Shown here one piece after another: positions 15,070 through 31,168 of a stretch of 44,182 bases of DNA. The translations under genes and the position numbers were made by a program. The notes below the pieces were generated by a model. The model saw only the letters and a program-made list of their open reading frames with translations. It ran no database searches and had not been told where the DNA came from. The stretch lies in NCBI GenBank assembly GCA_038046185.1, contig JBBSWR010000144.1:1-44182 (forward strand). The letters run 5' to 3'. This DNA is from Nanobdellota archaeon. Lineage in GTDB: Archaea; Nanobdellota; Nanobdellia; Woesearchaeales; GW2011-AR4. The number at the start of each line of letters is the position of its first letter. The first letter of the stretch is position 1.

Positions 15070-15240
15070 ATGAATGACATAGAGATACTTAACGTAAGAT
15101 TGCCATCTGAGATAGTTCAATGGCTTGATTCCTTAGTAGAGAAAGGAATATACAACAGCAGATCCGAGGCTATAAGGGAATTCTGTAGAGAACATATAGC
15201 ACAGTTTAAAGACAATACCGGAGTTGATAACAGTGCATGA
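15070..15240 (+). CDS. Ribbon-helix-helix (CopG/Arc-like) DNA-binding protein, 56 aa (below ORF-track cutoff)
   Basis: Hand translation: MNDIEILNVRLPSEIVQWLDSLVEKGIYNSRSEAIREFCREHIAQFKDNTGVDNSA. It shows the beta-strand (LNVRLP) plus two-helix pattern of RHH proteins. BRE/TATA lies at 15002-15017. Confidence 0.65.
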   Translation: MNDIEILNVRLPSEIVQWLDSLVEKGIYNSRSEAIREFCREHIAQFKDNTGVDNSA

Positions 15241-15244
15241 TGTC

Positions 15245-15520
15245 ATGGTCAGTGTTAGAATGCCTAAATCTTTAGTTTCTAGACTTAAGGAATTAGCTAA
15301 AACTCAACATTTCTTGGATTTAAGCGAAGAAGTGAGGGGCATTATAAGAAAAAAGTGGAGTTTCCACGCTAATCCTGAGCTTTTTGAGATAAAAAAATTG
15401 AGAGAAGGCATAGAACGGGAGATAAGGCAAAAAAGCGTCAAAAGAATTCATGAAGAGGTCTCTAAAGAGCTTGACAAGATTAAATCGCAATTAAAAAAGG
15501 GTGATTGGATAAATGAATAA
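15245..15520 (+). CDS. Ribbon-helix-helix DNA-binding protein with charged C-terminal helix
   Basis: MVSVRMPKSLVSRLKELAKTQHFLDLSEEVRGIIRKK fits the RHH pattern. The track starts it at a TTG at 15224. Its stop lies inside the ATGAATAA that starts the next gene. Confidence 0.6.
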   Translation: MVSVRMPKSLVSRLKELAKTQHFLDLSEEVRGIIRKKWSFHANPELFEIKKLREGIEREIRQKSVKRIHEEVSKELDKIKSQLKKGDWINE

Positions 15521-18500
15521 AGCCGGTAATAAACAAAGTGAAAAAAAATTAATGTTTCATATCATTCTACTTATACTTATATTATGCTTCTGGTTAATTT
15601 TTGCTTTAGCAGTTAAGGCATATCAGAATGAAAAAGGAATTTATCTGAGCATAGATAATTTGGAGCTAAACCAGCAAGATGTTATTTTTGACTTAGACAA
15701 TGTCAATTCTGGCTTGCATAGCAAAAATAAAACAATCTTTTTGAATTTAAAATATGGTGATGATATAAATTACGATAAAGATAATGATGGCATAGAAAAA
15801 ATAAACGGGGTTATAGATTTTGTTGCTGATGCAAAGTTTAATTGGGATGTTTATGAGGATAAGCTTTGCGCCAGATGGGAAATATATTCAATAGAAAAAA
15901 ACAGCTTAACTGCAATTTGTTATGGCAGCCAAAAATGCTGCGGGTTCGTAAGTCTTGACTCAACAAGGGAAAATTGGAGTACCCCTTTATATTTAACATA
16001 TGGTATGCACGATGCTTCTGAAAATAATATTATAAGTGCCCAAGTTATATATGTTGACTATAACTTAAGCAGAGAAAGGCCTTATTCAGAAATATATTAC
16101 TCGCGATGGAGCAGTTTAACAGCGAGGTTTGAAGAAAGCATTGGCTCAGTTAAAAACATTAGCATGGAAGAAGCGCTGAGAAGTGTTGATAAGATAAGAA
16201 GAAATAATACACAAATCAAAAAAATAGACTTAAAAGACAAATATGGTAATGAATTAAGAGAATTGAGCCAAGGCAAGAACGCCAGTATGGTGTTTAGTGT
16301 TGCTCATAGTAAGGTGAATGATAATTCAACCAGCCGCTTGTCCAGGCAAAATGTAAATAACGAAATAATAGTATCTTTGAACGATTTCAACGCATCAAAT
16401 GCAGACTGGGACAGCAGCAAAAACATCAAGATAAAAACAGAGAATATAGGTTTAGAAGATTCGCTGAAGCAATATGGCATGGATACCAAGGCAATCGTCT
16501 CCGTTCAGGGAGTTGACGATTTCATATCCGATAAAAACTACTATGGCACTGTCAAATTTAACATATCTGACGTTTTCAATGTTGTAATATACTGCCCGGA
16601 CGACAAAATCGGCTCTTGCAGATATGCGCAAGAATGCATTAATGGTTTTAAGGGCGTTGAATGCTATGTTAAAAATCTAAGCTCATTGATAATCTATGTG
16701 CCTCATTTCTCTTCCATAATCCTTGGATTAGACAACAGAACGGCAAATCTTACAATAAAAAGCCCTGAAAACTCAAGCGTTCTGCAAAGCGGAGAAAATA
16801 TATACCTAAATTTTACAATAAATGAGACTGTAAATGCAAATTATTCCCTGGATGCAAAACCATTTATTAATTTAGGCAATGAAGCATCGTTCAGCGGCTT
16901 GCTTAATGGCAGTATAAATTACGGAATCTTGGAAAATGGTGCGCATAATATTTCAATTAATATACGGGACATTTTCGGAAATAAAGCCATTATAAATTAT
17001 TCTTTTTGGGTTAATGATACAGCGGCACCTAATGTTTTATTAAATATAACAAACAATACGGCATTCAGCGGAACGAGCGGGTTGATTTCTGCCAGCTTTA
17101 ATTCCAGCGAATACTCTACTTTAAGCTATAAAATAAACAACAATAATTTCTCAAATCCAATCGACCTAGGCGCAAATAAATACAAAATTATGAATATAAC
17201 ATTCTCGGGCGGGGTAAACAACCTGACAATTAATGCTTCAGATTTCCATAATAATGGCAATTTGAACTATTTTAGCTTCAATTTTACACTCTTTCAACAG
17301 CCTTCTTGTTCAGATGCATTGCAAAATGGGGATGAAACTGGAGTTGATTGTGGCGGGGGGTGCGGAACTTGCATAAATTTCAGTGTTGCGACTGATAGGG
17401 AATCTTATAATCTGACGGATAATGTCTTTGTAACTGTTATAGCACGAGCAAATTCCACAGTCAATTTGACAATAATACGGCAAGACTTAGTTGCTTATAG
17501 GCACACTTTCATTCCTGTATTCAGCGGCGCACCTGTTGCTGAAACAAGAATAATTTCAAACACTAGCAATGCAGGAAATTATACAATCAATGCTACTCTG
17601 TACTATTTGAACATAACTCAATATATAAACAGGACATTTGAAATATTGCCTCCAGTGGCGAGCCCTATTGCTGTTACAATTATGCCTAACGCAACAACAA
17701 TAAAGGAAGGAAATCCCGTATTCTTTGCCTCAAGCGTATCAGGCAATAATAGTGCAGTTTCTTATAAATGGGATTTCCAAAATGATGGCGTTATAGACAG
17801 CACCAGCGATAGCCAAGTTTTCACATATGCATCAAATGGAACCTATACCGTAAATCTGACTGTAAGCGACTCAAAGTGGAACCAAACCGATTTAGAGACA
17901 ATTTATGTTAAAAAAGTGTATAATGTTACAGTGATAGTTAGGGATAACTCTACTTCTTCTGCTATCCAAAATGCAGAAATCTGGCTTGAGGACGAAATCA
18001 GAAATACAACTGGTTCAGGGACTGCTGATTATTCAAACATAGCTGGGTTTTACAGGTTGATGGTCAAAAAACCCGGCTATGCACAATTTTCAAATAAAAC
18101 AGAAATAAATGGCAATTCATTGCTCGAAGTCGTCTTGATAGAAGATGACAATTTGCCTCCGATAATACAGCTCATTAGTCCGACAGACAAATCAACAATT
18201 TCCAATGGCATAATTTCCTTTGTGTATAGAGCCTTAGACAAATCCCTCTTAAGCTGTACATTATACACAAAAATGAATTCAAGCGAGTGGAAAATATCTG
18301 GCGTTGATTCAAATCTGCAAAGCAATGCAGAGAACTCATTTACTATCAGCGGATTGAAAAATACAACATACGAGTGGAAAATAGGCTGCATAGACGCTGG
18401 AAGCAATTCGAATTATAGTGAAATATACTCGTTTACAGTTGACGCATCTTTAATAGAAAATCAGCTTTCTATCGATTTAAATGAGGAAGATAAGAATTCT

Positions 18501-19751
18501 GAAGATATACTGTCTCAAATAAGTGAAATTATGTCGGAGATTGGCAGCTTAAATGCAGAAAACAAAGAAGCTGCAGAAGCGCTGCAATTAAAGAACAATT
18601 TAGATAAAGCAGTAATAGCCGTACAGAGGGCTAACAGAGACTTACACAGCCTACAATGGAGAAAACTAAATGACACCGAATTAGAGGAAGAAACAAAAAA
18701 TATCCTCAATAGAATAAAAATTTTGAAGGATACTACTCCAAAAACTATAAAAGTAATTGATAAAAATGAATTTGTTAAGTATCCCAACAAGGAGGATATA
18801 AATAATGCGCTTCAAATACTGGCTAATTCCACAAATGCCAAATTAAGCAAAAACAATTTGAACGACCTAGTGCAGCAAAACTTTAAGTTGCAGTCTTTGA
18901 TTAGTGTTACAACAAAAGCCAAAATAATCGACGTTGAGTACATATCTGGAAATAAAAATACAATAACCCTTATACAAAAAATAGTCAACTTTGATAAAGA
19001 CTTTAAAGATTTAGTCTATTTTGAAGTTATACCAAAGGGCATTGCAAAAAATTTAACCGAGCTTAAATTATTGTTTGATTATGAGGTTGTTGATAATGAC
19101 CCTGTTATTAAGATTGACCTATCAAAGATAAAAGATTATTCTTTCTACGTGGAAAAAAAAGTGAGCCTAGAGAGCACCGAGGAAATAAAATCTGTGTTGT
19201 TAAGCAAAAACTTGAAATCCGAAAGCGGAAACTTACTGACAGGATTTTCTGTATTTGACCAGATTCCGGGAAATTTAGTTAAAACATTGAATGCAAGATT
19301 AATTATCGAGTTTGCCGTTATGATAATCCTGCTGCTTGTGTTTTTGCATTACCAGTTTGGAAGCTCTGGTAAATTTAAGTACGCATTTAATGGGAAGGAA
19401 TTAAATGAAACCAAACAGCTGATAGATTCGGCCCTAGTTGAAGTTAATAATAATAATTATGAAAAATCTTCCTTGATATACAAAGAGGTTAATATTAAAT
19501 TTAATAATCTTGATAAAAAGAAAAAAGATATGATTAAGGATTCTGTTATAGAATTGATAAATAGAATTAATAGATTATACATTAATCAGCTGGCAGAAAA
19601 GGCAAATAACTGCATAAAGGCAAATAATAAGCAGGCGGCATTTGCAATTTATTCTCAAATACAATCTTTGTATAGGGTAATACCTAAGAATTACAAGGCT
19701 GAAGTTTCAAAGAAATGTTTGGAACTTTATAGTGCAATGAACTCAAATTAA
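15513..19751 (+). CDS. Giant (1412 aa) type-I-like surface protein: N-terminal anchor, sequon-rich ectodomain with PKD-like and carboxypeptidase-regulatory-like domains, C-terminal TM and cytoplasmic helical tail
   Basis: N-terminal TM LMFHIILLILILCFWLIFALAV. PKD-like stretch VSYKWDFQNDGVIDSTSDSQVFTYASNGTYTVNLTVSD. Cys knot QNGDETGVDCGGGCGTC. CarboxypepD_reg-like stretch VTVIVRDNSTSSAIQNAEIWL..GFYRLMVKKPGY. C-terminal TM LIIEFAVMIILLLVFLHY followed by a ~120-aa tail. Confidence 0.8.
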   Translation: MNKAGNKQSEKKLMFHIILLILILCFWLIFALAVKAYQNEKGIYLSIDNLELNQQDVIFDLDNVNSGLHSKNKTIFLNLKYGDDINYDKDNDGIEKINGVIDFVADAKFNWDVYEDKLCARWEIYSIEKNSLTAICYGSQKCCGFVSLDSTRENWSTPLYLTYGMHDASENNIISAQVIYVDYNLSRERPYSEIYYSRWSSLTARFEESIGSVKNISMEEALRSVDKIRRNNTQIKKIDLKDKYGNELRELSQGKNASMVFSVAHSKVNDNSTSRLSRQNVNNEIIVSLNDFNASNADWDSSKNIKIKTENIGLEDSLKQYGMDTKAIVSVQGVDDFISDKNYYGTVKFNISDVFNVVIYCPDDKIGSCRYAQECINGFKGVECYVKNLSSLIIYVPHFSSIILGLDNRTANLTIKSPENSSVLQSGENIYLNFTINETVNANYSLDAKPFINLGNEASFSGLLNGSINYGILENGAHNISINIRDIFGNKAIINYSFWVNDTAAPNVLLNITNNTAFSGTSGLISASFNSSEYSTLSYKINNNNFSNPIDLGANKYKIMNITFSGGVNNLTINASDFHNNGNLNYFSFNFTLFQQPSCSDALQNGDETGVDCGGGCGTCINFSVATDRESYNLTDNVFVTVIARANSTVNLTIIRQDLVAYRHTFIPVFSGAPVAETRIISNTSNAGNYTINATLYYLNITQYINRTFEILPPVASPIAVTIMPNATTIKEGNPVFFASSVSGNNSAVSYKWDFQNDGVIDSTSDSQVFTYASNGTYTVNLTVSDSKWNQTDLETIYVKKVYNVTVIVRDNSTSSAIQNAEIWLEDEIRNTTGSGTADYSNIAGFYRLMVKKPGYAQFSNKTEINGNSLLEVVLIEDDNLPPIIQLISPTDKSTISNGIISFVYRALDKSLLSCTLYTKMNSSEWKISGVDSNLQSNAENSFTISGLKNTTYEWKIGCIDAGSNSNYSEIYSFTVDASLIENQLSIDLNEEDKNSEDILSQISEIMSEIGSLNAENKEAAEALQLKNNLDKAVIAVQRANRDLHSLQWRKLNDTELEEETKNILNRIKILKDTTPKTIKVIDKNEFVKYPNKEDINNALQILANSTNAKLSKNNLNDLVQQNFKLQSLISVTTKAKIIDVEYISGNKNTITLIQKIVNFDKDFKDLVYFEVIPKGIAKNLTELKLLFDYEVVDNDPVIKIDLSKIKDYSFYVEKKVSLESTEEIKSVLLSKNLKSESGNLLTGFSVFDQIPGNLVKTLNARLIIEFAVMIILLLVFLHYQFGSSGKFKYAFNGKELNETKQLIDSALVEVNNNNYEKSSLIYKEVNIKFNNLDKKKKDMIKDSVIELINRINRLYINQLAEKANNCIKANNKQAAFAIYSQIQSLYRVIPKNYKAEVSKKCLELYSAMNSN

Positions 19752-19755
19752 TTAT

Positions 19756-22095
19756 ATGAAATCAATAAAAGAAGTGCAAAATAATAAATTAATAGAGCTC
19801 GTAGTAATAATATCCTTATTCTTTATACTCAGTATAGACCTCCATGCTTTCGCCCAAACCAGCGTTAAAATTGAGCCTGAGCAAATAACTAAAAGAGTAA
19901 AACTAGGAGATTTCGTTGAAGTTCCAATCAAAATAACAAATGACGGCACTACTCAATTATCCTTAAGATTTGGCATTGAAGGCGATTTGATTAAAGTTGC
20001 GGCATTAGATAAAAATGGCGCTGCTATAGAGCCTGGGGCTGCTGAGCAGATAAAGCTAACTGTATTCGGAGAAAATATAACCACGCTTACAGGGCATTTT
20101 ACTGTTTCAGGAACAATTGAAGAAAGAATACCAATTAACATAACTGTAACTAGCTTAGACACAATTCCTGTAGAAGCATTACTGATTGAAATAGAACCCA
20201 TAACCGAAAAAGCAAAAATAGGGGACATCTTTAAGTATAAGATAAGCCTGCAAAATCTCATAACCGACAGAACATATAATGTTACATTATCTTCAAGCAT
20301 AGACAGATTGGAAGACCAATCAACTTATAAATTTGAAAAATCATTTTTTACGGAAACGGATGATGTGCAGCTATCCACTGCTTTTTCCCTAGTGAAGGAA
20401 TTTGCCATGCCTGATTTTATCAGACCGGGAGAATATGTGATAAACGTAAAGGCAGAGTATCTTGGCTTGTCATCGTCATCCAGCAAACGCTTTAGGGTAG
20501 TAGAGCCAATTCTTGACTATGAGTTATTGGGCATACTGCCCATTAGATGGGCATTGTTCTCAGGAATATTTGTTATAACCGGATTATTATCCTTTTTTAT
20601 CTATAAGAAGAGGAAGGCTAAAAATAAGCGATATGTTGCAAAAGTTGAATATAGCCTGTTGCCCCAGCCAGGCCCAAGATCAGCGTATATAGGTATGATA
20701 CCGGAAACAAACAAAAAAACTTATTTTGACATAGACCAATTGCAGACGCATACACTAGTTGCCGGCTCCACAGGCGGCGGCAAGACAGTATCAGCTGAGG
20801 TTCTGGTCGAGGAAGCTTTAATTAAAGGAACGGCTGTGATAGTCTTTGATCCCACTGCCCAATGGACGGGCTTCTTAAGAAAGAATGCTGATAAAAGAAT
20901 GTTTGCCCTCTATCCAAAATTTGGCCTTAAGAAGACTGATGCAAGGGCTTTCAATGGAAATATAAGGCAGATTATGAATGCAAGGGAGATTATAGATATT
21001 AAAAAATTTATTAAGCCCGGGGAAATAAACATTTTTTCAGTGAGCAAATTAGATCCTGAAGATATTGATATACTTGTTGCAAATACCGTAAGGGAAGTAT
21101 TTCATGCAAACCTTCCTGAAAGCAGCCAGTTAAAACTTCTCATAATTTTTGATGAAGTTCACAGATTATTGCCAAAATTTGGCGGCTCAGGGCAAGGTTT
21201 CATACAGATAGAAAGAGCAGCCAGAGAATTCAGAAAGTGGGGAGTCGGCTTGATACTAATAAGCCAAGTTTTGACAGATTTTGTAGGAGAGACAAAAGCC
21301 AATATAAACACAGAAATACAAATGAGAACCAGAGATCAAGGAGACCTCGAGAGGATAAAGAACAAGTATGGCTCTTACATGCTTCAGTCATTGCTTAAAT
21401 CTGCAACCGGCACAGGCATGATGGAAAACGCAGCATATAATAAAGGCAATCCTTATTTCGTATCTTTTAAGCCGCTGCTGCACGAGCATGCGCGCTTAAG
21501 CGACGAGGAATTGGATAATTACAACAAATACAATGAAGTTATAGAAGATTTAGACTACCAGCTTGAGCAGCTTGAAAAATCTGGAGTGGATATATTTGAT
21601 CTAAAGCTCGAGGTTAAGATGGCCCTTGATAAGGTAAAGTCAGGGAGCTTCAATATGGTTAATATATATCTTGAAGGGCTTACTCCAAGGATAAAATCCA
21701 ATTGGGATAAATTAGGCAAACAGCCTGAAAAAAGGAGATTAAAACTGGTTACAGAATCAGAATTAAAAGAAGAGCTGGAACGAGCCAAAGAAGCGAGAAA
21801 AAAATTCGAAGATCATCAGAAATCGGCTCCTAAATCTGGTTTAGAGGAACATGGAGTTCTCACGCTAAAAAATGGAATTGTAATAGCAAAGAAAAAAGAA
21901 ATGTTAGACGCGCTTCAGGCAATAGACGATAAAACATTCATAGCTCATGTTAACGAGCAGAGAAATGATTTCAGTGATTGGCTGGCAAATATCGATAAGG
22001 AAGCAGCTGAAAAAATAAAGGCAATAAAGACAAGAAAAGAGATGATAGAGATTTTAAAAAAGCTTGAAGCGCAAAATCAGGCAATTCCAAGTTAA
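19756..22095 (+). CDS. Bitopic membrane protein: ectodomain - TM - cytoplasmic HerA/FtsK-like (DUF87-type) P-loop ATPase - C-terminal N-D-F-x-x-W domain
   Basis: Signal/anchor LIELVVIISLFFILSIDLHAFA. TM WALFSGIFVITGLLSFFIY followed by KKRKAKNKRY. Walker A VAGSTGGGKT. Walker B LLIIFDEVH. HerA-like AAREFRKWGVGLILISQ. C-terminus FIAHVNEQRNDFSDWLANI. Confidence 0.8.
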   Translation: MKSIKEVQNNKLIELVVIISLFFILSIDLHAFAQTSVKIEPEQITKRVKLGDFVEVPIKITNDGTTQLSLRFGIEGDLIKVAALDKNGAAIEPGAAEQIKLTVFGENITTLTGHFTVSGTIEERIPINITVTSLDTIPVEALLIEIEPITEKAKIGDIFKYKISLQNLITDRTYNVTLSSSIDRLEDQSTYKFEKSFFTETDDVQLSTAFSLVKEFAMPDFIRPGEYVINVKAEYLGLSSSSSKRFRVVEPILDYELLGILPIRWALFSGIFVITGLLSFFIYKKRKAKNKRYVAKVEYSLLPQPGPRSAYIGMIPETNKKTYFDIDQLQTHTLVAGSTGGGKTVSAEVLVEEALIKGTAVIVFDPTAQWTGFLRKNADKRMFALYPKFGLKKTDARAFNGNIRQIMNAREIIDIKKFIKPGEINIFSVSKLDPEDIDILVANTVREVFHANLPESSQLKLLIIFDEVHRLLPKFGGSGQGFIQIERAAREFRKWGVGLILISQVLTDFVGETKANINTEIQMRTRDQGDLERIKNKYGSYMLQSLLKSATGTGMMENAAYNKGNPYFVSFKPLLHEHARLSDEELDNYNKYNEVIEDLDYQLEQLEKSGVDIFDLKLEVKMALDKVKSGSFNMVNIYLEGLTPRIKSNWDKLGKQPEKRRLKLVTESELKEELERAKEARKKFEDHQKSAPKSGLEEHGVLTLKNGIVIAKKKEMLDALQAIDDKTFIAHVNEQRNDFSDWLANIDKEAAEKIKAIKTRKEMIEILKKLEAQNQAIPS

Positions 22096-22118
22096 GTGTG
22101 TTTTTATTTTACACACAC
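22096..22118 (+). terminator. Hairpin immediately after the stop of the 779-aa ATPase gene
   Basis: gtgtgt-ttttatttt-acacac has perfect 6-bp arms and a T-rich loop, starting 1 nt after the TAA. Confidence 0.4.
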
Positions 22119-22121
22119 TAA

Positions 22122-22290: not shown

Positions 22291-22614
22291 ATGGATACTC
22301 AACAAGATTTTAGGTACATCCCGAAAAGGAAGCTATCAGAAGCGGAAAAACAAATAATAATGCTCAGAATAGAAAAACTTAAGCTGCATAGAGAAAAATC
22401 ACTTCTCATATTGAATAAAGGAATAATACTATTTTTTGTATTTTTGGCAGTTGCTGTTGTAGGTTTGGTAAACAAAATGGTTACTGTTATGCAGCTTAAT
22501 ATACTTGTTTTAACTGGATTTCTGGCTTTGATTGTGGGTGTTTTGCCTTATAGTTTTGCAACAAGAAAAGAAGAAAAAGAGCTGGAAAAAACTATAGACG
22601 AGCTGATAAACTAA
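22291..22614 (+). CDS. Small membrane protein (N-terminal charged helix + two TM helices)
   Basis: Two hydrophobic helices: GIILFFVFLAVAVVGLV and LNILVLTGFLALIVGVLPY. Its stop lies 2 nt before the first KaiC-like gene. Confidence 0.55.
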   Translation: MDTQQDFRYIPKRKLSEAEKQIIMLRIEKLKLHREKSLLILNKGIILFFVFLAVAVVGLVNKMVTVMQLNILVLTGFLALIVGVLPYSFATRKEEKELEKTIDELIN

Positions 22615-22616
22615 AA

Positions 22617-23313: not shown

Positions 23314-24015
23314 ATGAACAAAGAAGAGAGGATTACTACGGGAATAAAAGGGCTGGATAAATTAACAGACGGGGGTTTTGAGAAAAATAGCGCTGTTTTA
23401 GTTCAAGGAGGAGGAGGCAGCGGAAAGAGCATTTTTGCTACCCAGTTTTTGGCTGAGGGTATACTGCATAATAACGAAACCGGCATTTACATATCATTTG
23501 AGGAGGTCAAAGAAAGGTTTTATAAGCACATGCTGGTATTTGGATGGGACTTGAAGAAGGTTGAGGAGCAGGGAAGATTCATATTCTTAAAGTATAGTCC
23601 TGAGAGGATAGCAAAAATAGTCAAGGAAAGGAGCAAAGAAATTGAAAACTCGATAAAGGAAGTGGAAGCAAAAAGAATAGTGATTGATTCGCTGTCAGCA
23701 TACACTTCGCTGTTCGAAAGTGAGTCAGAAAAAAGAAAAATGCTTGTAGCATTATTTGACATGATTAAGGAGTGGGATTGCACGACTGTTGTTGTTGCCG
23801 AAGAGGATAATCATCCAGATCAGTATAATTCCTCGGTTATGGGTTTTATGGCTGATGCAATTATATTATTTTACAACGAAAGAGAGCCAAAAGGATTGCG
23901 CTTTAGAGCTGTAGAGGTATTTAAAATGAGGGGTACAAAGCACGAGTCAAAGATATGCTCAATGAAGATTACAGAACATGGGATTGAAGTTTATCCCGAT
24001 ACTATTGTGTTATAG
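23314..24015 (+). CDS. Single-domain KaiC/RadA-superfamily ATPase (KaiC-like 2, divergent)
   Basis: ATG at 23314. GIKGLDKLTDGGFEKNSAVLVQGGGGSGKSIFATQFLAEG (Walker A GGGGSGKS) and RIVIDSLS (Walker B). Confidence 0.75.
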   Translation: MNKEERITTGIKGLDKLTDGGFEKNSAVLVQGGGGSGKSIFATQFLAEGILHNNETGIYISFEEVKERFYKHMLVFGWDLKKVEEQGRFIFLKYSPERIAKIVKERSKEIENSIKEVEAKRIVIDSLSAYTSLFESESEKRKMLVALFDMIKEWDCTTVVVAEEDNHPDQYNSSVMGFMADAIILFYNEREPKGLRFRAVEVFKMRGTKHESKICSMKITEHGIEVYPDTIVL

Positions 24016-24080: not shown

Positions 24081-24842
24081 ATGAAAAAAATAAAAAGTGG
24101 TATAAGGGGACTTGACGCACTTATTGGCGGCGGATTTCTTGATGGGCATTCCGTATTAATATGCGGTGCTCCCGGCACAGGGAAGACTATTTTTGGGCTG
24201 CAGTTCCTGTATAAAGGAATAAAAGAAGAGAATGAAAATGGATTATTTGTAAGCGTTGAAGATAAAACAGAAAAATTGCTGTATTATGCCAGCCAGTTTG
24301 GGTGGAGTTTAGAGCAGTTTTTGAAAGAAAGAAAAATAGAATTCATGAAAGTTCCGATAGACCAGCGCGGATTTATGCTCGTTGATGCAATAACAGAAAA
24401 AGCTAAGAAGATAAATGCGAAAAGAATTGTCATTGATTCGCTGTCTGCATTGTCTATAAATGCAAAGATGTTCAATCTCCCATTGCACAACCAGCCTGAT
24501 CCAACAGGAACAATAAAGAAAAAAATCCTGAAGACGGCGGGCTACACCCCTTTTGAAGATATTTCACAGTTTACATATTTGTTTATAGACAGGATTGGTG
24601 ACATAAACGCCACAACCTTGTTTTTGACTGATACTGATGGCTCAGCGACATTGACCAGAGACGGGGTCTCAGAGTATGTCTGCGATGGCGTTATATTCTT
24701 ACAGCTGCATGACACAAGCAAGAATGTAAGCAGAACATTATCTGTTAAAAAAATGAGAGGCTGCGACATAATTCCGGGCATGAATAGCCTAAAGTTTACA
24801 AAAAGCGGCTTAGAAGTGGAAGAATTTAAGGCATTTTATTAG
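24081..24842 (+). CDS. Single-domain KaiC/RadA-superfamily ATPase (KaiC-like 3, close paralog of 1 with an insertion)
   Basis: GIRGLDALIGGGFLDGHSVLICGAPGTGKTIFGLQFLYKG. C-terminus MNSLKFTKSGLEVEEFKAFY compares with LNSLKFTESGLEVEEYKAFY in KaiC-like 1. There is a ~28-aa insertion after Walker B. Confidence 0.8.
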   Translation: MKKIKSGIRGLDALIGGGFLDGHSVLICGAPGTGKTIFGLQFLYKGIKEENENGLFVSVEDKTEKLLYYASQFGWSLEQFLKERKIEFMKVPIDQRGFMLVDAITEKAKKINAKRIVIDSLSALSINAKMFNLPLHNQPDPTGTIKKKILKTAGYTPFEDISQFTYLFIDRIGDINATTLFLTDTDGSATLTRDGVSEYVCDGVIFLQLHDTSKNVSRTLSVKKMRGCDIIPGMNSLKFTKSGLEVEEFKAFY

Positions 24843-25221
24843 ATAAATCATAAAATCAGAAATTTTTACGTGCGTAAGTGGAAAGCATGGAGTGAACTCT
24901 GTTGTTTAGTCAAGAATTTTTCAGGTAATTTAATAATAAACGGAGTAATTTTCCTATTTATTCTATTGGGAATCGATAACACCCGGTTAGCATACCAGTA
25001 AAAAATGCTAAGTAATAATTGAGAAAATTAGCAAAAAAAGAATTAATAATCTATTGATTTTCTGGTTCATAACAAAAATGGAATGTGAGTCGTATTATAT
25101 ATATATATCAATTTAATCTTTACTAAACTTAAATAATTTTGTATTTAATTAATTATTTAATTGCATACTCAATATGTATTTATATGTAATTAATATACAT
25201 TTTTCTATACTAATTACAAAA

Positions 25222-25237
25222 ACGAAACATTTATATA
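25222..25237 (+). promoter_or_regulatory. BRE/TATA-like promoter box of locus copy 2
   Basis: acgaaacatttatata ends 32 bp upstream of the ATG at 25270, implying a short or absent leader. Confidence 0.55.
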
Positions 25238-25269
25238 TGATTTAATATGATTAAGTATGTAGTAATAAT

Positions 25270-25434
25270 ATGAAAGAACGAATTACCATAAACTTGGATA
25301 AAGAATTTCTTAATTGGCTAGACCAAAAAATAGCCGAAAAAGTGTTCGCAAACAGAAGCCATGGATTTGAATATTTAATCAAGAAAAAAATGCAGTTGGA
25401 AGATGAAAGAAAGACTAACAATTACTCTGGATAA
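25270..25434 (+). CDS. Ribbon-helix-helix protein, 54 aa (below ORF-track cutoff)
   Basis: Hand translation: MKERITINLDKEFLNWLDQKIAEKVFANRSHGFEYLIKKKMQLEDERKTNNYSG. BRE/TATA lies at 25222-25237. Confidence 0.55.
   Translation: MKERITINLDKEFLNWLDQKIAEKVFANRSHGFEYLIKKKMQLEDERKTNNYSG
25313..25374 (+). repeat. 62-nt near-identical segment (1 mismatch) repeated at 25446..25507; core of a 133-bp tandem duplication of the RHH gene
   Basis: attggctagaccaaaaaatagccgaaaaagtgttcgcaaacagaagccatgg[a/g]tttgaatat occurs in both copies at an offset of 133 bp. Confidence 0.9.
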
Positions 25435-25558
25435 GGAATTGCTCGATTGGCTAGACCAAAAAATAGCCGAAAAAGTGTTCGCAAACAGAAGCCATGGGTT
25501 TGAATATATGATTATGGAAAAGATTAGAGAGAAAACTAAGGAAGAGAAAAATGAATAG
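25403..25558 (+). CDS. Ribbon-helix-helix protein, 51 aa, tandem duplicate of 25270..25434
   Basis: Hand translation: MKERLTITLDKELLDWLDQKIAEKVFANRSHGFEYMIMEKIREKTKEEKNE. It starts inside the 3' end of the first copy in another frame. Its stop lies inside the ATGAATAG that starts the next gene. Confidence 0.55.
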   Translation: MKERLTITLDKELLDWLDQKIAEKVFANRSHGFEYMIMEKIREKTKEEKNE

Positions 25559-28500
25559 CAAGAAAAAAATCTTTGACTACAAATTTATGTACGTCATATT
25601 ACTAATCGTATTATTAGGTGGAGCTATTATTGGTTTGGTTATGGTTAAAAAATTTATAGGGTTTGCCGGCACTCAAATTCCTGCACAAGCGGGTTACATT
25701 ACTACTGTAGCAATAGATCATAGAGAAATAACCTCCTATTGGGCAGGTATTTTTGGCCTTGTTTTTTCACAGGAGGGATTCGATGAAACACAAACTATAG
25801 CTGCGACTTCTGGGGCAATTTCAGCAGAGACTTTTGTATTTGAGTGCATGGACCCAACAAAAGCCGTTAATGAAATGTATGCAAGCAATAATATCACAAT
25901 AAATTTCTCGAATGTTATTGCCGGAAATACTGATATGATTGACCGGGATTTGCTGAATTTAAGCAATAATACCAAAGAAAGAGCAAATAATACTTTTACT
26001 TATAATGAATCAATATTGCTTGGCACAACAAATATATCTGGCATTCCTTCTGTGTATACCAATGTTAATGATGCTCCAAACAATACGCTGTTTTTTACCG
26101 GTATACTTAATTCAAGCGGCAAGCTTGTTCTGGTCATCAAAGTTTTTGCTGCCTCCAAAAGAAGTTTTAAAGGTACACTTATTGACTATCAGGCACTGCT
26201 GCCTGTAAAAAATAATTCAGCAACATGGTATTTTTTTGCAGATCCAAATGACAACTGCCCAGCCGGCTTCGGTTCAGGACAAATCGGAGATTCAGTAATA
26301 AGTGGTTTTGTATTTGAATCAAATAGCACACTTCCAATTTCAGATGCAACAGTCAGCGCGGGCGGCAATGTTTCTCTAACAGATTCTAATGGGTTTTTCA
26401 ATTTCACGGCTCCTGGGGGGGTGACATACCATATAATAGCAATTAAGTCCGGATATGTTACCAATATAAGCGTAATAAATACGACAATTGGCGAAGAAAC
26501 AAAACAAAACATGACACTTGCGAAATTCTTTGGATTTTTGGGTGCAAACGCTACAATATCTGGCTACGTAAAAGACAACTCAACTAACGCTACAATTGCC
26601 AATGTTACTATTAGCATTGCCGGACTGACTGCACAATCAAATGCAACCGGAAACTATTCTATTTTGATACCAGAGGGAACGCATGTAATAGCTGCCGTTA
26701 AAAGCGGCTACAGCAATTTTGTCGGCAATTTTTCAATAAGGGACAGCCAAAATTTAAGCTTTATAATTAATATGACAGCTGCAATTAGTGCAGTGGCTCA
26801 AACCCAAAATGGAACACTGCTTAACAATGGAACTATACAAGGATTTGTAACAGACAACTCAACCAACCTTAGCCTGGCAAATGTTATTGTAACTGTAGCT
26901 GGAGTGTCAAACGCAACAAATAGCTCTGGATTTTATAACATAACAGCTTTGCAAGGCACAACCAATCTAGTTGCAACAAAAAGCGGTTATAATGCTTACG
27001 CAAGAGAAGTAGATATATTAGCAAATAACATAACGATACTGAATTTTAGCATGAGTCCTATTTCCGTGGCTGTAGGAGTAGGTAATGGTTCAGTAAAGGG
27101 ATTAGTAAAAACATCTTCAGGAACTTTGATTAGCGATGTTGCAGTAAGCGTTGCCGGAAAATCAAATTCAAGCAACTCCAGCGGCGGATACTTTTTAGGC
27201 CAAGTGTTAGCAGGAACTCATAATCTAGTTGCTACAAGATCTGGTTTCAATAACTATGTAGCTGTGATAAATGTCACAGAAAGTGCAACAACAGAGCATA
27301 ACATAACAATGATAACCACAACAGAGGCTGGCTTAGGCGCTGGAAGCGGCGCCGGTCAAGGCGCCGGTCAAGGCGCCGGTCAAGGCGCTGGAAGCGGCGC
27401 AGGCACAGGCATTCAGTCACAATTAGAGCAGCCTACACGTGTAGTTGATTACGAGATATCTGTCAAGAAAATATTGAGAAAATTGAAAGTAGGTAACTTT
27501 ATTGGTGTTCCTATAGATATTTCCAACTATAAAACACAATCAATGGACTTAAAGTTTTCAATAGAAGGAGACGTCAAGAAAATTGCAAGGATTGATAAGG
27601 AAAGACTTGTTATAGATGCTGGTTCCAGTGGGGAAGTTATGGTTACCTTACTTGGAAACGTTGAGCCCGGAGTATATGATGGTTTCCTTGCCATAACTGG
27701 CGATATAAACGAGCAAATTCCAATTTACGTATTAGTACTTGAAAAAGACAGGTTATCAGTTGAAGCTCTAGTTATAAAGATTTCTTCTCAGGACAAAAGG
27801 GTAGCAGCAGGCGACATATTCAAATATACAGTTGACTTGCAAAATTTATTGAGTGAAGAGAAATATAAAGTTGCATTATCTTACAGTTTGCAAGGCATTA
27901 ATAATAACAAGAGCACGTTTCTGGAAAAGGAAGAGATTGTGATGTATACTTCATTTTCTTTATTAAAAAGTTTCCAAGTTCCCAGCGATTTGCCTGTAGG
28001 AGATTATGCGTTGAAAGTAAAAGCGGATTTTCTTGATTTGACAGCAGAACAATCTACAATATTTACGGTAGTTGAACCAATCTACAAATACGCTTTATTC
28101 GGGATTATTCCCGCATGGATTTTGGCTGCTTTAATTCTTACACTTTCGCTAGGGACTTTTTCAACATTAGTTTACAAAAAAAGAAAAGAAGAAAAAAGAA
28201 GGTATCAGATAGAGTTAGATTATTCACAATTGCCGCAGCCAGGCCCAAGATCAGTATATATAGGGCATATCGCAGAAACGAGTAATAAAACCTATTTTGA
28301 CCTTGACACATTCCAAGTTCATACATTAGTGGCTGGCTCAAGCGGCTCCGGAAAAAGCCTGGCTGCACAGATTTTAGTGGAAGAAGCTTTGCTAAAGGGC
28401 GTGGCAGTAATAGTCTTTGATCCAACTGCCCAATGGACAGGATTTCTGAGAAAACTGGAAGATAAGAGATTGCTAAGCATGTACAAAGGATATGACCTAA

Positions 28501-29714
28501 GAAGGACAGATGCACGGGCATTCAATGGAAATGTGCGTCAAGTTACAAATGCGCGGGAATTAATAGAATTCAAGAAATTCATGAAACCGGGAGAAATAAA
28601 CATATTCGTAACTAATAAGCTTGAAATAAAGGACATAGAGTTATTTGTGGCAAATACAATAAGGGAGGTTTTCCATGCAAATCTGCCCGAAAGCCGAGAA
28701 TTAAAGTACTTGATGGTATATGACGGAATACACGCTTTATTGCCAAAATTTGGCGGCTCCGGCCAGGTTTTTGTGCAGATAGAAAGAGCAGCCAGAGAAT
28801 TCAGAAAGTGGGGAGTCGGCTTGGTATTGATAAGCCAGGTGCTAAGTGATTTCCCTCAAGAAGTACTTGCAAACATCAATACGGAGATAATGCTAAGAAC
28901 AAGGGATGAGGGCGACCTCAACAGGATTAAGGAGAAATATGGCGATAAGATACTGCAGTCAGTTGTCAAAGCTGCTGTAGGCACTGGAGTTATACAAAAC
29001 TCTTCCAACAACAAAGGTAAGCCGTATTTCGTGAGTTTTAGGCCGCCGATGCACAGCATTCAAAGTATAAGCGAAGAGGAATTAGAGAAATACAACAACT
29101 ATAATGAGATAATAGAAGATTTGAGCTACCAGCTTGAGCAATTAGAAAATGAAGGTATTGATATATTTGACTTAAAGCTGGAATTAAAGCTCTCGCAAGA
29201 TAAGGTAAAATCCGGCAATTTCAATATGGTCAATATATATTTAGACGGCCTAAAACCAAGGATAAAATCCCAGTGGGAAAAACTTGGAAAAAAACCCAAA
29301 AAAAGAGAAATAAAATATATATCGGAAGGGGAGTTGGAAGGGGAGTGGGAATTAGCAACGCAGGAAAGGAAGAAATACATAAGCAAAGATAAATTAGCAG
29401 AAGAGAGCAAAAACGGAGAGCAAAAAGAGGGTACTGAAATGGAAGACACAAGCTCTAAAGAAAAAAAAGAAAGCTTTGAAGCATCATCCAACAAAATGAT
29501 TGACCCTGATGATGACCAAAACAATAATTTGGAAATGTCGTTCGAGAAATTGTATATCCAAACAAAGAATCTGATTGCAAAAAATGAAAAAGAGAAAGCG
29601 GGCAACCTATACCACGAAATACAGAATATTTATAAGAGCGCGCCCAAGGAAATCAAATCAAAGATACTGGCGAAATGCATTGAAATACAAAAAAATTTAA
29701 GTAATGTAAAATAA
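25551..29714 (+). CDS. 1387-aa fusion protein: N-terminal anchor + four carboxypeptidase-regulatory-like repeats + Gly/Ala/Gln linker + ectodomain-TM-HerA/FtsK-like ATPase module + acidic region + helical tail
   Basis: TM1 FMYVILLIVLLGGAIIGLVMV. Four ~90-aa repeats (ISGFVFESNS.., ISGYVKDNST.., IQGFVTDNST.., VKGLVKTSSG..). Linker GLGAGSGAGQGAGQGAGQGAGSGAGTG. From ~aa 625 it is collinear with the 779-aa protein. Walker A VAGSSGSGKS. Walker B region YLMVYDGIH. AAREFRKWGVGLVLISQ. Confidence 0.8.
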   Translation: MNSKKKIFDYKFMYVILLIVLLGGAIIGLVMVKKFIGFAGTQIPAQAGYITTVAIDHREITSYWAGIFGLVFSQEGFDETQTIAATSGAISAETFVFECMDPTKAVNEMYASNNITINFSNVIAGNTDMIDRDLLNLSNNTKERANNTFTYNESILLGTTNISGIPSVYTNVNDAPNNTLFFTGILNSSGKLVLVIKVFAASKRSFKGTLIDYQALLPVKNNSATWYFFADPNDNCPAGFGSGQIGDSVISGFVFESNSTLPISDATVSAGGNVSLTDSNGFFNFTAPGGVTYHIIAIKSGYVTNISVINTTIGEETKQNMTLAKFFGFLGANATISGYVKDNSTNATIANVTISIAGLTAQSNATGNYSILIPEGTHVIAAVKSGYSNFVGNFSIRDSQNLSFIINMTAAISAVAQTQNGTLLNNGTIQGFVTDNSTNLSLANVIVTVAGVSNATNSSGFYNITALQGTTNLVATKSGYNAYAREVDILANNITILNFSMSPISVAVGVGNGSVKGLVKTSSGTLISDVAVSVAGKSNSSNSSGGYFLGQVLAGTHNLVATRSGFNNYVAVINVTESATTEHNITMITTTEAGLGAGSGAGQGAGQGAGQGAGSGAGTGIQSQLEQPTRVVDYEISVKKILRKLKVGNFIGVPIDISNYKTQSMDLKFSIEGDVKKIARIDKERLVIDAGSSGEVMVTLLGNVEPGVYDGFLAITGDINEQIPIYVLVLEKDRLSVEALVIKISSQDKRVAAGDIFKYTVDLQNLLSEEKYKVALSYSLQGINNNKSTFLEKEEIVMYTSFSLLKSFQVPSDLPVGDYALKVKADFLDLTAEQSTIFTVVEPIYKYALFGIIPAWILAALILTLSLGTFSTLVYKKRKEEKRRYQIELDYSQLPQPGPRSVYIGHIAETSNKTYFDLDTFQVHTLVAGSSGSGKSLAAQILVEEALLKGVAVIVFDPTAQWTGFLRKLEDKRLLSMYKGYDLRRTDARAFNGNVRQVTNARELIEFKKFMKPGEINIFVTNKLEIKDIELFVANTIREVFHANLPESRELKYLMVYDGIHALLPKFGGSGQVFVQIERAAREFRKWGVGLVLISQVLSDFPQEVLANINTEIMLRTRDEGDLNRIKEKYGDKILQSVVKAAVGTGVIQNSSNNKGKPYFVSFRPPMHSIQSISEEELEKYNNYNEIIEDLSYQLEQLENEGIDIFDLKLELKLSQDKVKSGNFNMVNIYLDGLKPRIKSQWEKLGKKPKKREIKYISEGELEGEWELATQERKKYISKDKLAEESKNGEQKEGTEMEDTSSKEKKESFEASSNKMIDPDDDQNNNLEMSFEKLYIQTKNLIAKNEKEKAGNLYHEIQNIYKSAPKEIKSKILAKCIEIQKNLSNVK
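27348..27383 (+). repeat. Three perfect tandem 12-bp repeats (ggcgccggtcaa) encoding (GAGQ)3 inside CDS 25551..29714
   Basis: Read directly. They are flanked on both sides by ggcgctggaagcggcgc. It is a GC-rich island in an AT-rich gene. Confidence 0.9.
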
Positions 29715-29715
29715 A

Positions 29716-29961
29716 ATGGCCGAAGGCATAGATTTAACTGTAGAAAATTTAAAACAGGAGTTAAATCAAATCAAGGATAAAATTAGCCAATGCAGGAAAA
29801 AGGGAATGGATACTAAAATCGCAGAGCTTAAGATTATGGCCATACCCTCAAAAATCAAGATGCTTGAAGTAACAAAAGATTTCAAGGATGTGCAAAAAAT
29901 AGCTAAACTTTTAAATGATGCTATAGCTGAAATAGACAATGTAGAAAAAGGAGGATTATAG
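29716..29961 (+). CDS. Small coiled-coil protein
   Basis: Starts 1 nt after the stop of the fusion gene. The 81 aa are heptad-like and K/E/I-rich. Confidence 0.5.
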   Translation: MAEGIDLTVENLKQELNQIKDKISQCRKKGMDTKIAELKIMAIPSKIKMLEVTKDFKDVQKIAKLLNDAIAEIDNVEKGGL

Positions 29962-30056
29962 GGAGTTTTGAATGTCCTAAAAAATGCATTGCATTTTTGG
30001 GAACTTGAACTCGGTTCAAGTAAATGGGAAAAATAATGAATTTTTCAAAATTCTTT
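29961..30056. repeat. ~100-nt double-hairpin intergenic element, copy 2
   Basis: gggagttttgaatgtcctaaaaaatgcattgcatttttgggaacttgaactcggttcaagtaaatgggaaaaataa...ttcaaaattcttt. It has the same order of blocks as 5877..5981. Confidence 0.75.
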
Positions 30057-30082
30057 ATAATATCCCCATGAAGTGATTTGCT

Positions 30083-31168
30083 ATGATGTTTTTCAAGAAA
30101 AAAAATAAGGAAGAAGAACCAAAGCCAGCGGAAGCCGAGCTAGACGAAGAAGGTAATTTGATAGTTCCGGTTGCATCATCGCCGCACAGCGAAAAAACAC
30201 CAGAAAGTAGTGATGTTTCGGTTGGAATGCTAACTGCTGATGTCGAAAAGCTGAAAGCACAGTTTAGTACATTCTATGAATTACAAAAAACTTCTACAGA
30301 GCGTTTTTCTATGATAAACCAGCAAATTGGTGAGTTAAGGAGCATGCTAATCGACAGGGACAAAGCTGCTCAGCACCTAGAGGCAAAAGCTACGCAAGCA
30401 ATTGACATTGTAAAAACGGTGCAGCCAGACAAGCTTATGATTGAGATGAGAAAAACAGATGGTAAGATTGAGGCTTTACGGGCAAATCTGGAAAGTACGG
30501 AGAACACAATAAATAATGTTGTCAATGAAATTAAAGAAGTCAAGAATAAAATGAATGTTTTTAGGGGTATGGAACAAGTCATAAGCTTAAACGAAGAAGC
30601 AAAAAAAGAGCTTATGGATATAAAAAAAGTGCAGGCAATTGTCGAGAGGCATGCGGATAAGGTTGAGACGGTATTTACTGAAATGCAGAAAAAATCCAGC
30701 GAATTTGTTAAGGTTGGAGATACTGTTAAAGATCTTGACAAATCCTTCAAGCAAATAAGCTCTGAGTTTGATTCAATAAAAATTAAGATTTCGGATTTGG
30801 CACATAAAAAGGAAGTCGAAAACCTTATATCTAAGTTTGACGACTTTGAAAATTATGCTGGCAATATACTCAAGTTAATAAACAGCAAATTTGAAAAAAT
30901 GGAAAAAGAATTAGGTCTAGAGTTTAATAAAAAGTTCGAAGAAACAGATAAATTGCTGAAAGGATTTGAGATGTTGTCGCAAAAAATACCGGATTTGGAC
31001 AAGTATTTCAATTTACTTCAAGATGAAGCAAAAAAAGTGCCGCCGGATGGATCGAAGGTAGAAAAAATAAAGGAAATAGGAGAAGAAAGTCCTGAAGTGA
31101 CTGTTGAGCCAAATAACCCCGGCATATTTGGAAAAATAAAGGGTTTTGCAGGCAAATTCAAAAAATGA
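30083..31168 (+). CDS. Long coiled-coil protein with C-terminal amphipathic basic tail
   Basis: 361 aa, almost entirely heptad-like charged sequence. The C-terminus GIFGKIKGFAGKFKK resembles a membrane-targeting amphipathic helix. Confidence 0.6.
   Translation: MMFFKKKNKEEEPKPAEAELDEEGNLIVPVASSPHSEKTPESSDVSVGMLTADVEKLKAQFSTFYELQKTSTERFSMINQQIGELRSMLIDRDKAAQHLEAKATQAIDIVKTVQPDKLMIEMRKTDGKIEALRANLESTENTINNVVNEIKEVKNKMNVFRGMEQVISLNEEAKKELMDIKKVQAIVERHADKVETVFTEMQKKSSEFVKVGDTVKDLDKSFKQISSEFDSIKIKISDLAHKKEVENLISKFDDFENYAGNILKLINSKFEKMEKELGLEFNKKFEETDKLLKGFEMLSQKIPDLDKYFNLLQDEAKKVPPDGSKVEKIKEIGEESPEVTVEPNNPGIFGKIKGFAGKFKK

Follow-up and report, generated by a model that had tools for sequence, protein, structure and literature searches.

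Gene content and organization of the locus

We analysed a 44,182-nt contig (JBBSWR010000144.1 of assembly GCA_038046185.1; hereafter the window) from a Nanobdellota archaeon, with positions 15070-31168 as the region of study. There, an earlier reading of the DNA (the original prediction) had placed two copies of an envelope-spanning module, each with a pair of ribbon-helix-helix (RHH) genes, a giant surface protein and a transmembrane (TM) HerA/FtsK-like ATPase, on either side of three KaiC-like ATPase genes. Every open reading frame (ORF) named in that prediction was found in the ORF list of the window, co-directional on the + strand and at the coordinates given below, including TM107 and the three KaiC-like genes between the two ATPase genes and the 81-aa and 361-aa genes, the latter encoding a coiled-coil protein, behind the second ATPase.

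15000-15017, + strand: B recognition element (BRE)/TATA-like block AAACGAAAGATTTATATA, in the promoter region (14938..15070) of the first unit
15070-15240, + strand: RHHa1, 56-aa RHH protein (Pfam RHH_1)
15245-15520, + strand: RHHa2, probable RHH protein, 91 aa from ATG (mechanical ORF from TTG at 15224)
15513-19751, + strand: BIG1412, 1412-aa bitopic surface protein
19756-22095, + strand: ATP779, 779-aa short ectodomain-TM-HerA ATPase
21151..21156, + strand: intact Walker B Asp-Glu (D466-E467) of ATP779, in FDEVHR (aa 465-470)
22291-22614, + strand: TM107, 107 aa with two predicted TM helices, at the head of the KaiC block
22617-23294, + strand: KaiC1, single-domain KaiC-like ATPase
23314-24015, + strand: KaiC2, KaiC-like ATPase from ATG (mechanical ORF from TTG at 23269)
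24081-24842, + strand: KaiC3, KaiC-like ATPase with an insertion
25220-25237, + strand: BRE/TATA-like block AAACGAAACATTTATATA, promoter of the second unit
25270-25434, + strand: RHHb1, 54 aa, tandem paralogue of RHHb2
25403-25558, + strand: RHHb2, 51-aa RHH protein with NikR N-terminal matches
25551-29714, + strand: ATP1387, 1387-aa long ectodomain-TM-HerA ATPase
28722..28727, + strand: degenerate Walker B Asp-Gly (D1058-G1059) of ATP1387, in YDGIHA (Asp-Glu in the family; the next His-Arg is His-Ala)
29716-29961, + strand: p81, 81-aa small helical cytoplasmic protein
30083-31168, + strand: cc361, 361-aa coiled-coil protein

The region is a lineage-specific expansion of one chromosomal operon conserved across Woesearchaeota/Nanoarchaeia, with the order RHH gene, RHH gene, PKD-domain surface protein, ectodomain-TM-HerA ATPase, small OrfY-like protein and coiled-coil protein. 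This gene cluster is real, conserved and so far undescribed: literature searches (HerA, KaiC, DUF5752, DUF87 and OrfY in DPANN/Woesearchaeota, and archaeal 'dark matter' papers) found no description of the ATPase family or the operon, and a membrane-protein paper (PMC5898192) concerns a different, MoxR-based system.

The two halves of the region do not share one architecture, as had been proposed, because the surface protein of the second locus is the ATPase itself and because BIG1412, p81 and cc361 each occur in a single locus: BIG1412 has no counterpart in the second locus except a 52-aa motif common to its tail and that of ATP1387 (E = 4 × 10−6), and p81 and cc361 have none in the first. 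A surface protein of >1300 aa whose start codon overlaps the stop codon of the preceding RHH gene is indeed found in each locus (RHHa2-BIG1412 and RHHb2-ATP1387), but in the second it is the same ORF as the ectodomain-TM-ATPase, not an additional gene.

Two membrane-anchored HerA-clade ATPases

A BLASTP alignment (E = 0; 55% identity over 660 aa) paired ATP779 with residues 635-1286 of ATP1387, and the part common to both comprises two beta-rich extracellular domains, one TM helix, a KKRK flank and the ATPase. The exterior of ATP779 consists of a signal-like helix and two immunoglobulin (Ig)-like beta-sandwich domains (aa ~37-249), followed by the TM helix (aa ~259-289) and KKRKAKNKR; its interior consists of a HerA-clade core (aa ~300-575), a three-helix domain (aa 583-690) and an OrfY/DUF5752-like tail (aa ~700-779). 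ATP1387 begins with an N-terminal anchor, a conserved tip domain (aa ~40-250), four CarboxypepD_reg domains and a Gly/Ala/Gln linker, and continues with two Ig-like domains, a TM helix (aa ~849-871), KKRKEEKRR, the HerA-clade ATPase and a helical tail with a TPR-like motif.

BIG1412, the surface protein of the first unit, has a hydrophobic segment near its N terminus (aa 16-34; anchor or signal) and a variable distal part of ~600 aa that is rich in sequons. From ~aa 600 onwards it is conserved: a Pfam PKD domain (aa 716-799) is followed by a helical stalk with few sequons (aa ~986-1262) and then by a C-terminal TM helix (aa 1261-1279), behind which lies a cytoplasmic tail of 128 aa. Searches of Protein Data Bank (PDB) sequences with BIG1412 and the N-terminal half of ATP1387 returned PKD, CarboxypepD_reg and linker matches only.

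The distribution of N-X-S/T sequons bears on topology. Sequons were enriched in the ectodomains of BIG1412 (49 versus 19.4 expected from shuffling) and ATP1387 (40 versus 12.5), as originally claimed, but not in that of ATP779 (3 sequons); the predicted cytoplasmic parts had 0-3, at or below the 1.6-3.3 expected from shuffling. With enrichment confined to the outside and the basic flank inside, the ectodomain is predicted not to be cytoplasmic, and the hydrophobic segments and the sequon distribution agree with the proposed arrangement of ectodomain, single TM helix, positive-inside KKRK flank and cytoplasmic P-loop ATPase. One ORF with one TM helix likewise bears out the proposal of a motor covalently tethered through the membrane to a glycosylated ectodomain. 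We could establish, as far as predicted topology goes, that the protein crosses the membrane once, is glycosylated outside and carries the HerA-type ATPase inside.

HerA-type signatures had been reported for both copies, and Walker A (aa 336-344 in ATP779; quoted stretches LVAGSTGGGKT for ATP779 and LVAGSSGSGKS for ATP1387) and the motif AAREFRKWGVGL[IV]LISQ were found in both; Walker B is intact in ATP779 only. ATP1387 has lost the catalytic Walker B glutamate and retains Walker A, so this lineage is predicted to have one active and one degenerate ATPase.

Sequence and predicted fold both place the motor in the HerA clade of the FtsK-HerA superfamily. Pfam matches for ATP779 and ATP1387, respectively, were to DUF87 (41.1 and 40.2 bits; cut-off 23.2) and HerA_C (30.8 and 36.9 bits; cut-off 22), and the best PDB sequence match of the ATPase was Sulfolobus HerA (4d2i). 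An AlphaFold model of ATP779 (59-sequence alignment; mean predicted local distance difference test score (pLDDT) 84) contained, in order, an N-terminal helix, two Ig-like beta-sandwiches, the TM helix, a RecA-like core, the three-helix domain and a small alpha/beta tail. In Foldseek comparisons with the PDB, the model again matched 4d2i first (E = 1.6 × 10−12) and other HerA rings next, and its extracellular domains matched Ig/ASH-type sandwiches such as RbmA.

The two ATPases belong to a large family. With only the ATPase domain as query, an exhaustive HMMER search of 1.84 billion cluster representatives recovered 382 family representatives at E ≤ 1 × 10−30, and among the 256 members whose N-terminal sequence was long enough, 251 had a hydrophobic helix immediately ahead of the ATPase. 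What precedes this helix measured 73 to 5648 aa across the family, and the ATPase was 45-80% identical; two giant members carried LamG, beta-helix, sialidase-N, NPCBM_assoc and subtilase domains. A homologue search of 5.8 billion proteins yielded >870 homologues in two length classes (~775 and ~1300 aa), annotated only as DUF87/HerA-like. All those with a source name were labelled Woesearchaeota, Nanoarchaeota/Nanoarchaeia or 'archaeon', plus one 'bacterium'; a few members of the family recovered by HMMER came from bins labelled Altiarchaeota and Hadarchaeales. A polypeptide that runs from an extracellular domain through one TM helix to the motor has not been described in the FtsK-HerA superfamily, which this family would extend.

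Two other proteins of the window resemble parts of these ectodomains. The secreted, sequon-rich 248-aa product of u248 (9804-10550) is homologous to the tip of the long ATPase (aa ~40-231; window 25551-26450), with 29% identity over 213 aa (E = 2 × 10−11). A 402-aa protein (2285-3493), in which a signal peptide and beta-rich domains precede a C-terminal TM helix with a basic tail, showed weak similarity (22% over ~280 aa, E = 0.01) to ATP779 in its membrane-proximal ectodomain and may be of the same ectodomain-TM design without the ATPase.

Conservation and history of the operon

Scanning GTDB with one genome for each species yielded >540 confirmed matches, and the best 79 loci were analysed by searching the window proteins against their six-frame ORFs. 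These 79 loci were labelled Woesearchaeota, Nanoarchaeota or 'archaeon', some with a default Methanosarcinales label. At long-type loci, BIG lay upstream in 37 of 45 and RHHa1 with RHHa2 in 39 of 45; downstream were a small p81- or DUF5752-like protein (38 of 44), cc361 (41 of 44) and, rarely, KaiC (2-3 of 44). From these counts, the prevailing state is a single operon of RHHa1, RHHa2, BIG, long ATPase, small protein and cc361. The short ATPase was preceded by RHHa1-RHHa2-BIG at 12 of the 13 loci (for RHHa1 on its own, the counts upstream of the ATPase are likewise 39 of 45 and 12 of 13). Conserved linkage to the ATPase, as predicted, was therefore found for the surface and RHH genes but not for KaiC.

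In three relatives (L018, L020 and L024), the short ATPase gene leads straight into a long ATPase gene, p81 and cc361; in another (L019), two RHHb genes lie between short and long ATPases; and TM107 with KaiC1-3 follows the short ATPase only in the closest relatives (L005-L009), where the half with the long ATPase is located elsewhere. In some close relatives the two halves are on different scaffolds (L009 versus L034, within one assembly, and L013 versus L052). A neighbour-joining tree of the ATPase domains contained a single-long clade (all DE-x-HR), a short clade (all DEVHR) and a paired-long clade, in which 9 of 12 proteins, including ATP1387, had D[GS]xH[NSTA]. As judged from these sequences, the simplest reading is a tandem duplication of the ATPase and then a division of labour, in which the short copy would have shed the distal ectodomain and stayed catalytic, and the long copy would have kept its ectodomain and Walker A and lost the Walker B glutamate. 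TM107, the three KaiC-like genes and the RHHb pair would be later insertions between the ATPase copies. The surroundings are of a chromosomal, housekeeping type, with genes for GluRS, pyrophosphatase and tRNA-Ser nearby.

The KaiC block

All three KaiC-like proteins are clear PF06745 members (KaiC1 196.5 bits, KaiC2 198.6 bits and KaiC3 167 bits in two stretches; Pfam cut-off 26.6). KaiC1 is 55% identical to KaiC3, and KaiC2 30-33% to the other two. Among loci with 4 kb of downstream sequence, 3 of 18 had KaiC and TM107 behind the short ATPase, or five loci when the shorter contigs among L005-L009 are counted. The proposal that the triplet is part of the machine did not hold up across these loci: the KaiC block is an optional, lineage-specific addition rather than a core component, and where present, its products would serve as a lineage-specific regulatory add-on.

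Two side observations concern KaiC-like domains elsewhere. At two loci, an RHHb-like gene lies directly ahead of a KaiC-like gene ~6 kb downstream of the operon (L081, ~20122-21085; L083, ~18964-20042), and this adjacency suggests that the RHHb type may travel with KaiC-like genes, not with the ATPase. A 4192-aa member of the ATPase family from outside the window (P0162) has an N-terminal subtilase domain and, after the HerA domain, a C-terminal DUF835 domain, which we take to be related to KaiC-like P-loop domains; the DUF835 tail was dropped as a link to KaiC, having no sequence similarity to the window KaiC proteins.

Promoters and RHH genes

As predicted, a BRE/TATA box precedes each RHH pair, and it is the same block, AAACGAAASATTTATATA, at 15000 and 25220. 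This block had 4 matches in the whole window versus 0.04 expected, and because the remaining two copies also lie ahead of genes, it is the strong BRE/TATA consensus of the organism. The first promoter is flanked on either side by an 18-nt direct repeat, TTACTA(T/A)AAGATTAC(C/A)AA, at 14938 and 15053, and also by CTTAC(C/T)A repeats with 11-nt spacing; these repeats are plausible candidate RHH operators, through which the RHH pair would most likely autoregulate the operon.

The claim of two tiny RHH genes per locus was upheld by profile for RHHa1 (RHH_1, 27.6 bits; Pfam cut-off 20.5) and RHHb2 (N-terminal RHH models of NikR, E = 4 × 10−7). RHHb1 had no Pfam match of its own and is counted as RHH on its 68% identity to RHHb2. 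RHHa2 is only weakly RHH-like (RHH_1/VapB matches, E = 0.005-0.03), with a helical C-terminal extension behind the RHH part; its 91-aa length was also given by the gene call of an identical contig (L004), and it is conserved in 57 loci.

Small OrfY-like proteins and cc361

Upstream of the operon, at 4329-6729, a GT4 glycosyltransferase gene (with a starch/glycogen-synthase-like N-terminal domain) is followed by DUF5752/OrfY-like genes at 5513-5836, 6018-6317 and 6397-6729. The second and third of these had DUF5752 matches (PF19027, cut-off 23) of 29.2 and 33.9 bits, respectively, and the tail of ATP779 scored 19.4 bits, below the cut-off. A profile of the small proteins matched both repeats of OrfY (4cso; E = 2.3 × 10−6), and a model of a DUF5752 protein (pLDDT 83) had 4cso as its sole strong fold match (Foldseek probability 1.0). 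By phmmer, 112-129 of 265 ATPase family members were linked to the DUF5752 small proteins, so that about half carry the tail; a homologue search with the 6397-6729 product returned 8 close relatives. p81 corresponds to the N-terminal part of a ~240-aa protein that occupies the same operon position in most relatives and has an OrfY/DUF5752-like domain. A likeness of p81 to a helical hairpin of the ATPase was dropped (BLASTP E = 3).

Tandem runs of three small DUF5752-family genes also adjoin the operon in L010 and L011, and in L002 it is adjoined by a glycogen-synthase-like gene and small unannotated genes, which were not matched to the DUF5752 family. A glycosyltransferase-OrfY arrangement is presumably also present in the trehalose operon of Thermoproteus tenax.

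cc361 has no TM helix and no sequons, and belongs to a family of >260 proteins with a conserved length of ~345-385 aa; members with an organism name were from Woesearchaeota, Nanoarchaeota/Nanoarchaeia or 'archaeon', plus one 'bacterium'. Both ends are basic, amphipathic and conserved across the family (N-terminal MxFxKKKK; C-terminal G-hydrophobic-x-K-x-K-G-x-x-K-F-K-K), and cc361 is therefore probably peripheral to the membrane. Membership in PspA/Vipp1/ESCRT-III was rejected (PspA_IM30 18.7 bits versus a cut-off of 33.9; a profile of 27 homologues found no such PDB chain), and the profile search against the PDB gave no significant match to other solved proteins.

Comparison with known systems

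The original prediction had asked whether the ATPases belong to an already characterized system. Scores and partner genes were compared for HerA-NurA, FtsK, VirB4, coupling proteins, Ced and defence systems, and the ATPases fell below the membership thresholds of each. With HerA-NurA (4d2i) they have in common Walker A, the Walker B DE-x-H, an ARE-x-RK-x-G-x-G motif and the fold; however, HerA-NurA has a HAS barrel and a NurA partner, and the window ATPases lack both and are membrane-anchored with an extracellular N-terminal part. Scores against the NCBIfam HerA equivalog models were 18-43 bits (cut-offs 800-970), and no NurA, Mre11 or Rad50 domain was found in the window ORFs scanned.

The nearest functional analogues are CedB and CedD, TM-anchored archaeal HerA-clade ATPases required for DNA import in Sulfolobales (PMC11868833). 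The likeness lies in a HerA-clade ATPase tethered by a TM segment; the differences are that the extra domain of the Ced proteins is a cytoplasmic VirB4-like N-terminal domain rather than an ectodomain, and that the Ced partners, polytopic CedA/CedE and the pilin CedA1, are all missing here. Against the CedD model, the ATPases scored 29-42 bits (cut-off 600). VirB4 of type IV secretion systems (T4SS) likewise has a cytoplasmic N-terminal domain and works with a VirB6/CedA-like polytopic protein and a VirB2/CedA1-like pilin, neither of which is in the operon; AAA_10 scored 24.0 and 19.5 bits (cut-off 27.5), and the TraC, VirB4 and CedD models together 23-42 bits (cut-offs 567-600).

FtsK/SpoIIIE, Streptomyces TraB and the coupling proteins resemble the window ATPases in superfamily and in the N-terminal TM anchoring of a cytoplasmic ring motor, but have 2-5 TM helices and no large ectodomain, compared with one TM helix here. 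FtsK_SpoIIIE (PF01580) scored 19.3 and 20.3 bits (cut-off 24), with only ~45 residues matched, and no FtsK-type gamma winged helix-turn-helix (wHTH) domain was detected in the window ATPases. Among coupling-protein models, TrwB_AAD_bind gave 22.4 bits over aa 327-371 only, around Walker A (profile positions 12-56 of 387), T4SS-DNA_transf 19.2 bits (cut-off 20.1) and the TraD models 16-37 bits (cut-offs 366-648). No relaxase or T4SS genes were found in the window ORFs scanned, nor, in agreement with the original prediction, any recognizable pilin.

OrfY of Thermoproteus tenax (4cso; DUF5752), labelled a transcription factor by its depositors, is a free-standing two-repeat protein, whereas the OrfY-like domain of the present family is fused to, or encoded beside, the membrane ATPase. 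The three KaiC-like proteins resemble archaeal single-domain KaiC-like ATPases, with linkage to the HerA operon in a small subclade only, and differ from clock KaiC, which is a double-domain protein (NF006799, 129-158 bits versus a cut-off of 408).

Potential functions

Taken as a whole, the explanation that we favour, tentatively, is an expanded conserved operon whose ring ATPase moves a polymer at contacts held by the ectodomains. As in other HerA/FtsK-class proteins, the ATPase would form a ring under the membrane, which would bundle the TM helices and membrane-proximal Ig-like domains into a collar, with tips of adhesin, lectin or hydrolase type displayed at the cell surface. The two paralogues of this lineage, the short one active and the long one inactive, probably cooperate, possibly in mixed rings. 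ATP hydrolysis would most likely move a polymer at or through the membrane where the ectodomains hold another cell or a substrate, and the coiled-coil and OrfY-like proteins would act as a cytoplasmic scaffold or adaptors. To our knowledge, every characterized membrane-anchored member of the superfamily (FtsK/SpoIIIE, TraB, VirD4 and CedB/CedD) moves DNA, and by this analogy DNA is the best guess for the polymer.

Several points weigh against such transport. The operon contains no polytopic channel protein (VirB6/CedA/FtsK-N-like), pilin, nuclease or relaxase, and a ring of single TM helices is a poor DNA conduit. Nothing in the ectodomains suggests DNA binding; their hypervariability fits adhesion or envelope roles equally well without translocation. 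The HAS barrel is absent from the ATP779 model, where a hairpin (aa 309-325), itself short, is all that separates the TM helix (aa 263-289) from Walker A (aa 337-343). The substrate, the ATPase activity and the formation of hexamers are all predictions, and mixed short/long rings are a guess from the loss of the catalytic residue alone. RHH proteins are common generic repressors and no specific sign of DNA transfer. The strongest objection to transport is that no polytopic channel partner is present; because of it, two other accounts, in which the ATPase acts on its own ectodomains or ties the surface coat to the cytoplasm, stay alive.

In the former, which is possible if doubtful, ATP would change the conformation or clustering of the ATPase's own ectodomains and of the PKD partner without any transport, switching adhesion, lectin binding or hydrolase activity, comparable to FtsEX/MacB-type ABC systems or integrin inside-out signalling, except that the motor would be of HerA type. 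That ectodomain and ATPase form one polypeptide in 251 of the 256 family members, that the ectodomains are adhesin-, lectin- or protease-like and hypervariable over an ATPase 45-80% conserved, that the membrane-proximal Ig-like pair is conserved and that there is no channel-forming polytopic partner are all consistent with this account; however, force is poorly transmitted by one TM helix and a short linker, the RHH pair and the coiled-coil partner are explained no better, and we know of no HerA/FtsK-class ATPase that works in this way. The latter is unlikely: the two anchored glycoproteins would be major components of a surface layer or stalk, SlaB-like in their beta-sandwiches, coiled-coil stalk and C-terminal anchor, tied inside by the ATPase ring and cc361, with a role in envelope assembly, membrane remodelling, division or chromosome anchoring. 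Consistent with a scaffold are the very widespread occurrence of the operon in the order, usually with one long ATPase per locus, its position among often-linked envelope genes (wHTH216, u248, u327, u561 and u394), the low-sequon helical stalk of BIG ahead of the C-terminal anchor and the basic amphipathic ends of cc361 at both termini, but the resemblance to SlaB is in architecture only, similarity of cc361 to PspA/ESCRT-III, SepF and Cdv proteins is not significant by sequence or profile, and ectodomains of up to 5600 aa with enzymes would be unusual for lattice proteins.

FtsK-like ATPases also power type VII secretion, and an EssC-like motor for protein export or insertion, for instance one that positions the giant surface proteins or sets them free, would suit large surface proteins encoded beside the ATPase, where overlapping stop and start codons suggest translational coupling. 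Such a motor is improbable here: the signal or anchor segments at the N termini of the two large proteins are ordinary, which suggests Sec-dependent export, and the Pfam scan found no FHA domains, tandem ATPase domains or WXG-like substrates. One integrated apparatus made of two complete machine copies and the KaiC triplet that they bracket, as first envisaged, is now very improbable, being largely refuted by synteny: the genes do run in one direction at close spacing, in five relatives TM107 and KaiC1-3 come right behind the short ATPase, and one giant family member ends in a DUF835 domain, but this tail is dissimilar in sequence to the KaiC proteins, KaiC is away from most loci, and the halves occur on different scaffolds and differ in gene content. 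HerA-like ATPases are common in archaeal mobile elements and defence systems (PMC4158269), and a mobile-element, viral or anti-phage module would account for weak PADLOC matches, the best of which are partial (mad8, 59-60 bits; HerA, 53-58 bits). We consider it extremely improbable, given that these and the NCBIfam scores are far below family level (anti-phage HerA models, compared for Sir2-HerA, DUF4297-HerA and MADS systems, 20-28 bits versus cut-offs of 800-850, with no effector genes) and that no integrase, Sir2, DUF4297, nuclease or capsid genes were found in the window ORFs scanned; chromosomal position and an order conserved across hundreds of species indicate vertical inheritance.

The function that we infer is thus either translocation of a polymer, probably DNA, at adhesive contacts or control of the surface domains by means of ATP. 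The Woesearchaeota and their Nanoarchaeia relatives are abundant and uncultured, have reduced genomes and are thought to depend on other cells; a chromosomal operon present in hundreds of species is a concrete candidate for partner attachment or material exchange. A conserved motor (45-80% identity) combined with fast-evolving surface domains of up to ~5600 aa is the pattern expected of a core machine with host- or substrate-specific tips, and the degenerate long and active short paralogues are a natural experiment on division of labour in rings. It is conceivable, albeit rather uncertain, that the ectodomain-TM-HerA family and its partners are an unrecognized class of archaeal envelope machine that seizes a host or substrate and moves DNA or another polymer in or out. 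If so, they would be the long-sought contact and uptake apparatus of reduced DPANN symbionts; an envelope scaffold would still show how a surface coat is tied to the cytoplasm.

The surrounding region

The whole 1-31 kb stretch of the window looks like a cell-envelope island. The envelope genes at 6732-14656 accompany the operon time and again in other genomes, with no constant order or strand, and comprise u561 (signal peptide and C-terminal TM helix), an ArsR-type wHTH gene, u248, u327, a lipoprotein, three small proteins and a polytopic HExxH membrane protein (12581-13765); the cluster wHTH216-u248-u327 lies within a few kilobases of the operon in many relatives. The 57-1193 product is a paralogue of u327 (10991-11974; 43% identity over 280 aa, E = 7 × 10−60), and both are extremely sequon-rich. 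Between 1171 and 2313, a 380-aa protein with no Pfam match has an N-terminal anchor, ~10 copies of a Cys-rich repeat (C-x-x-x-E-[YF]-x-x-N-x-x-C) and a C-terminal TM helix. Downstream of the operon, tRNA-Ser(CGA) (33128-33213) overlaps the mechanical start of ORF 33207-34244 (345 aa, lamin-tail domain), and the true start of this gene is probably further downstream.

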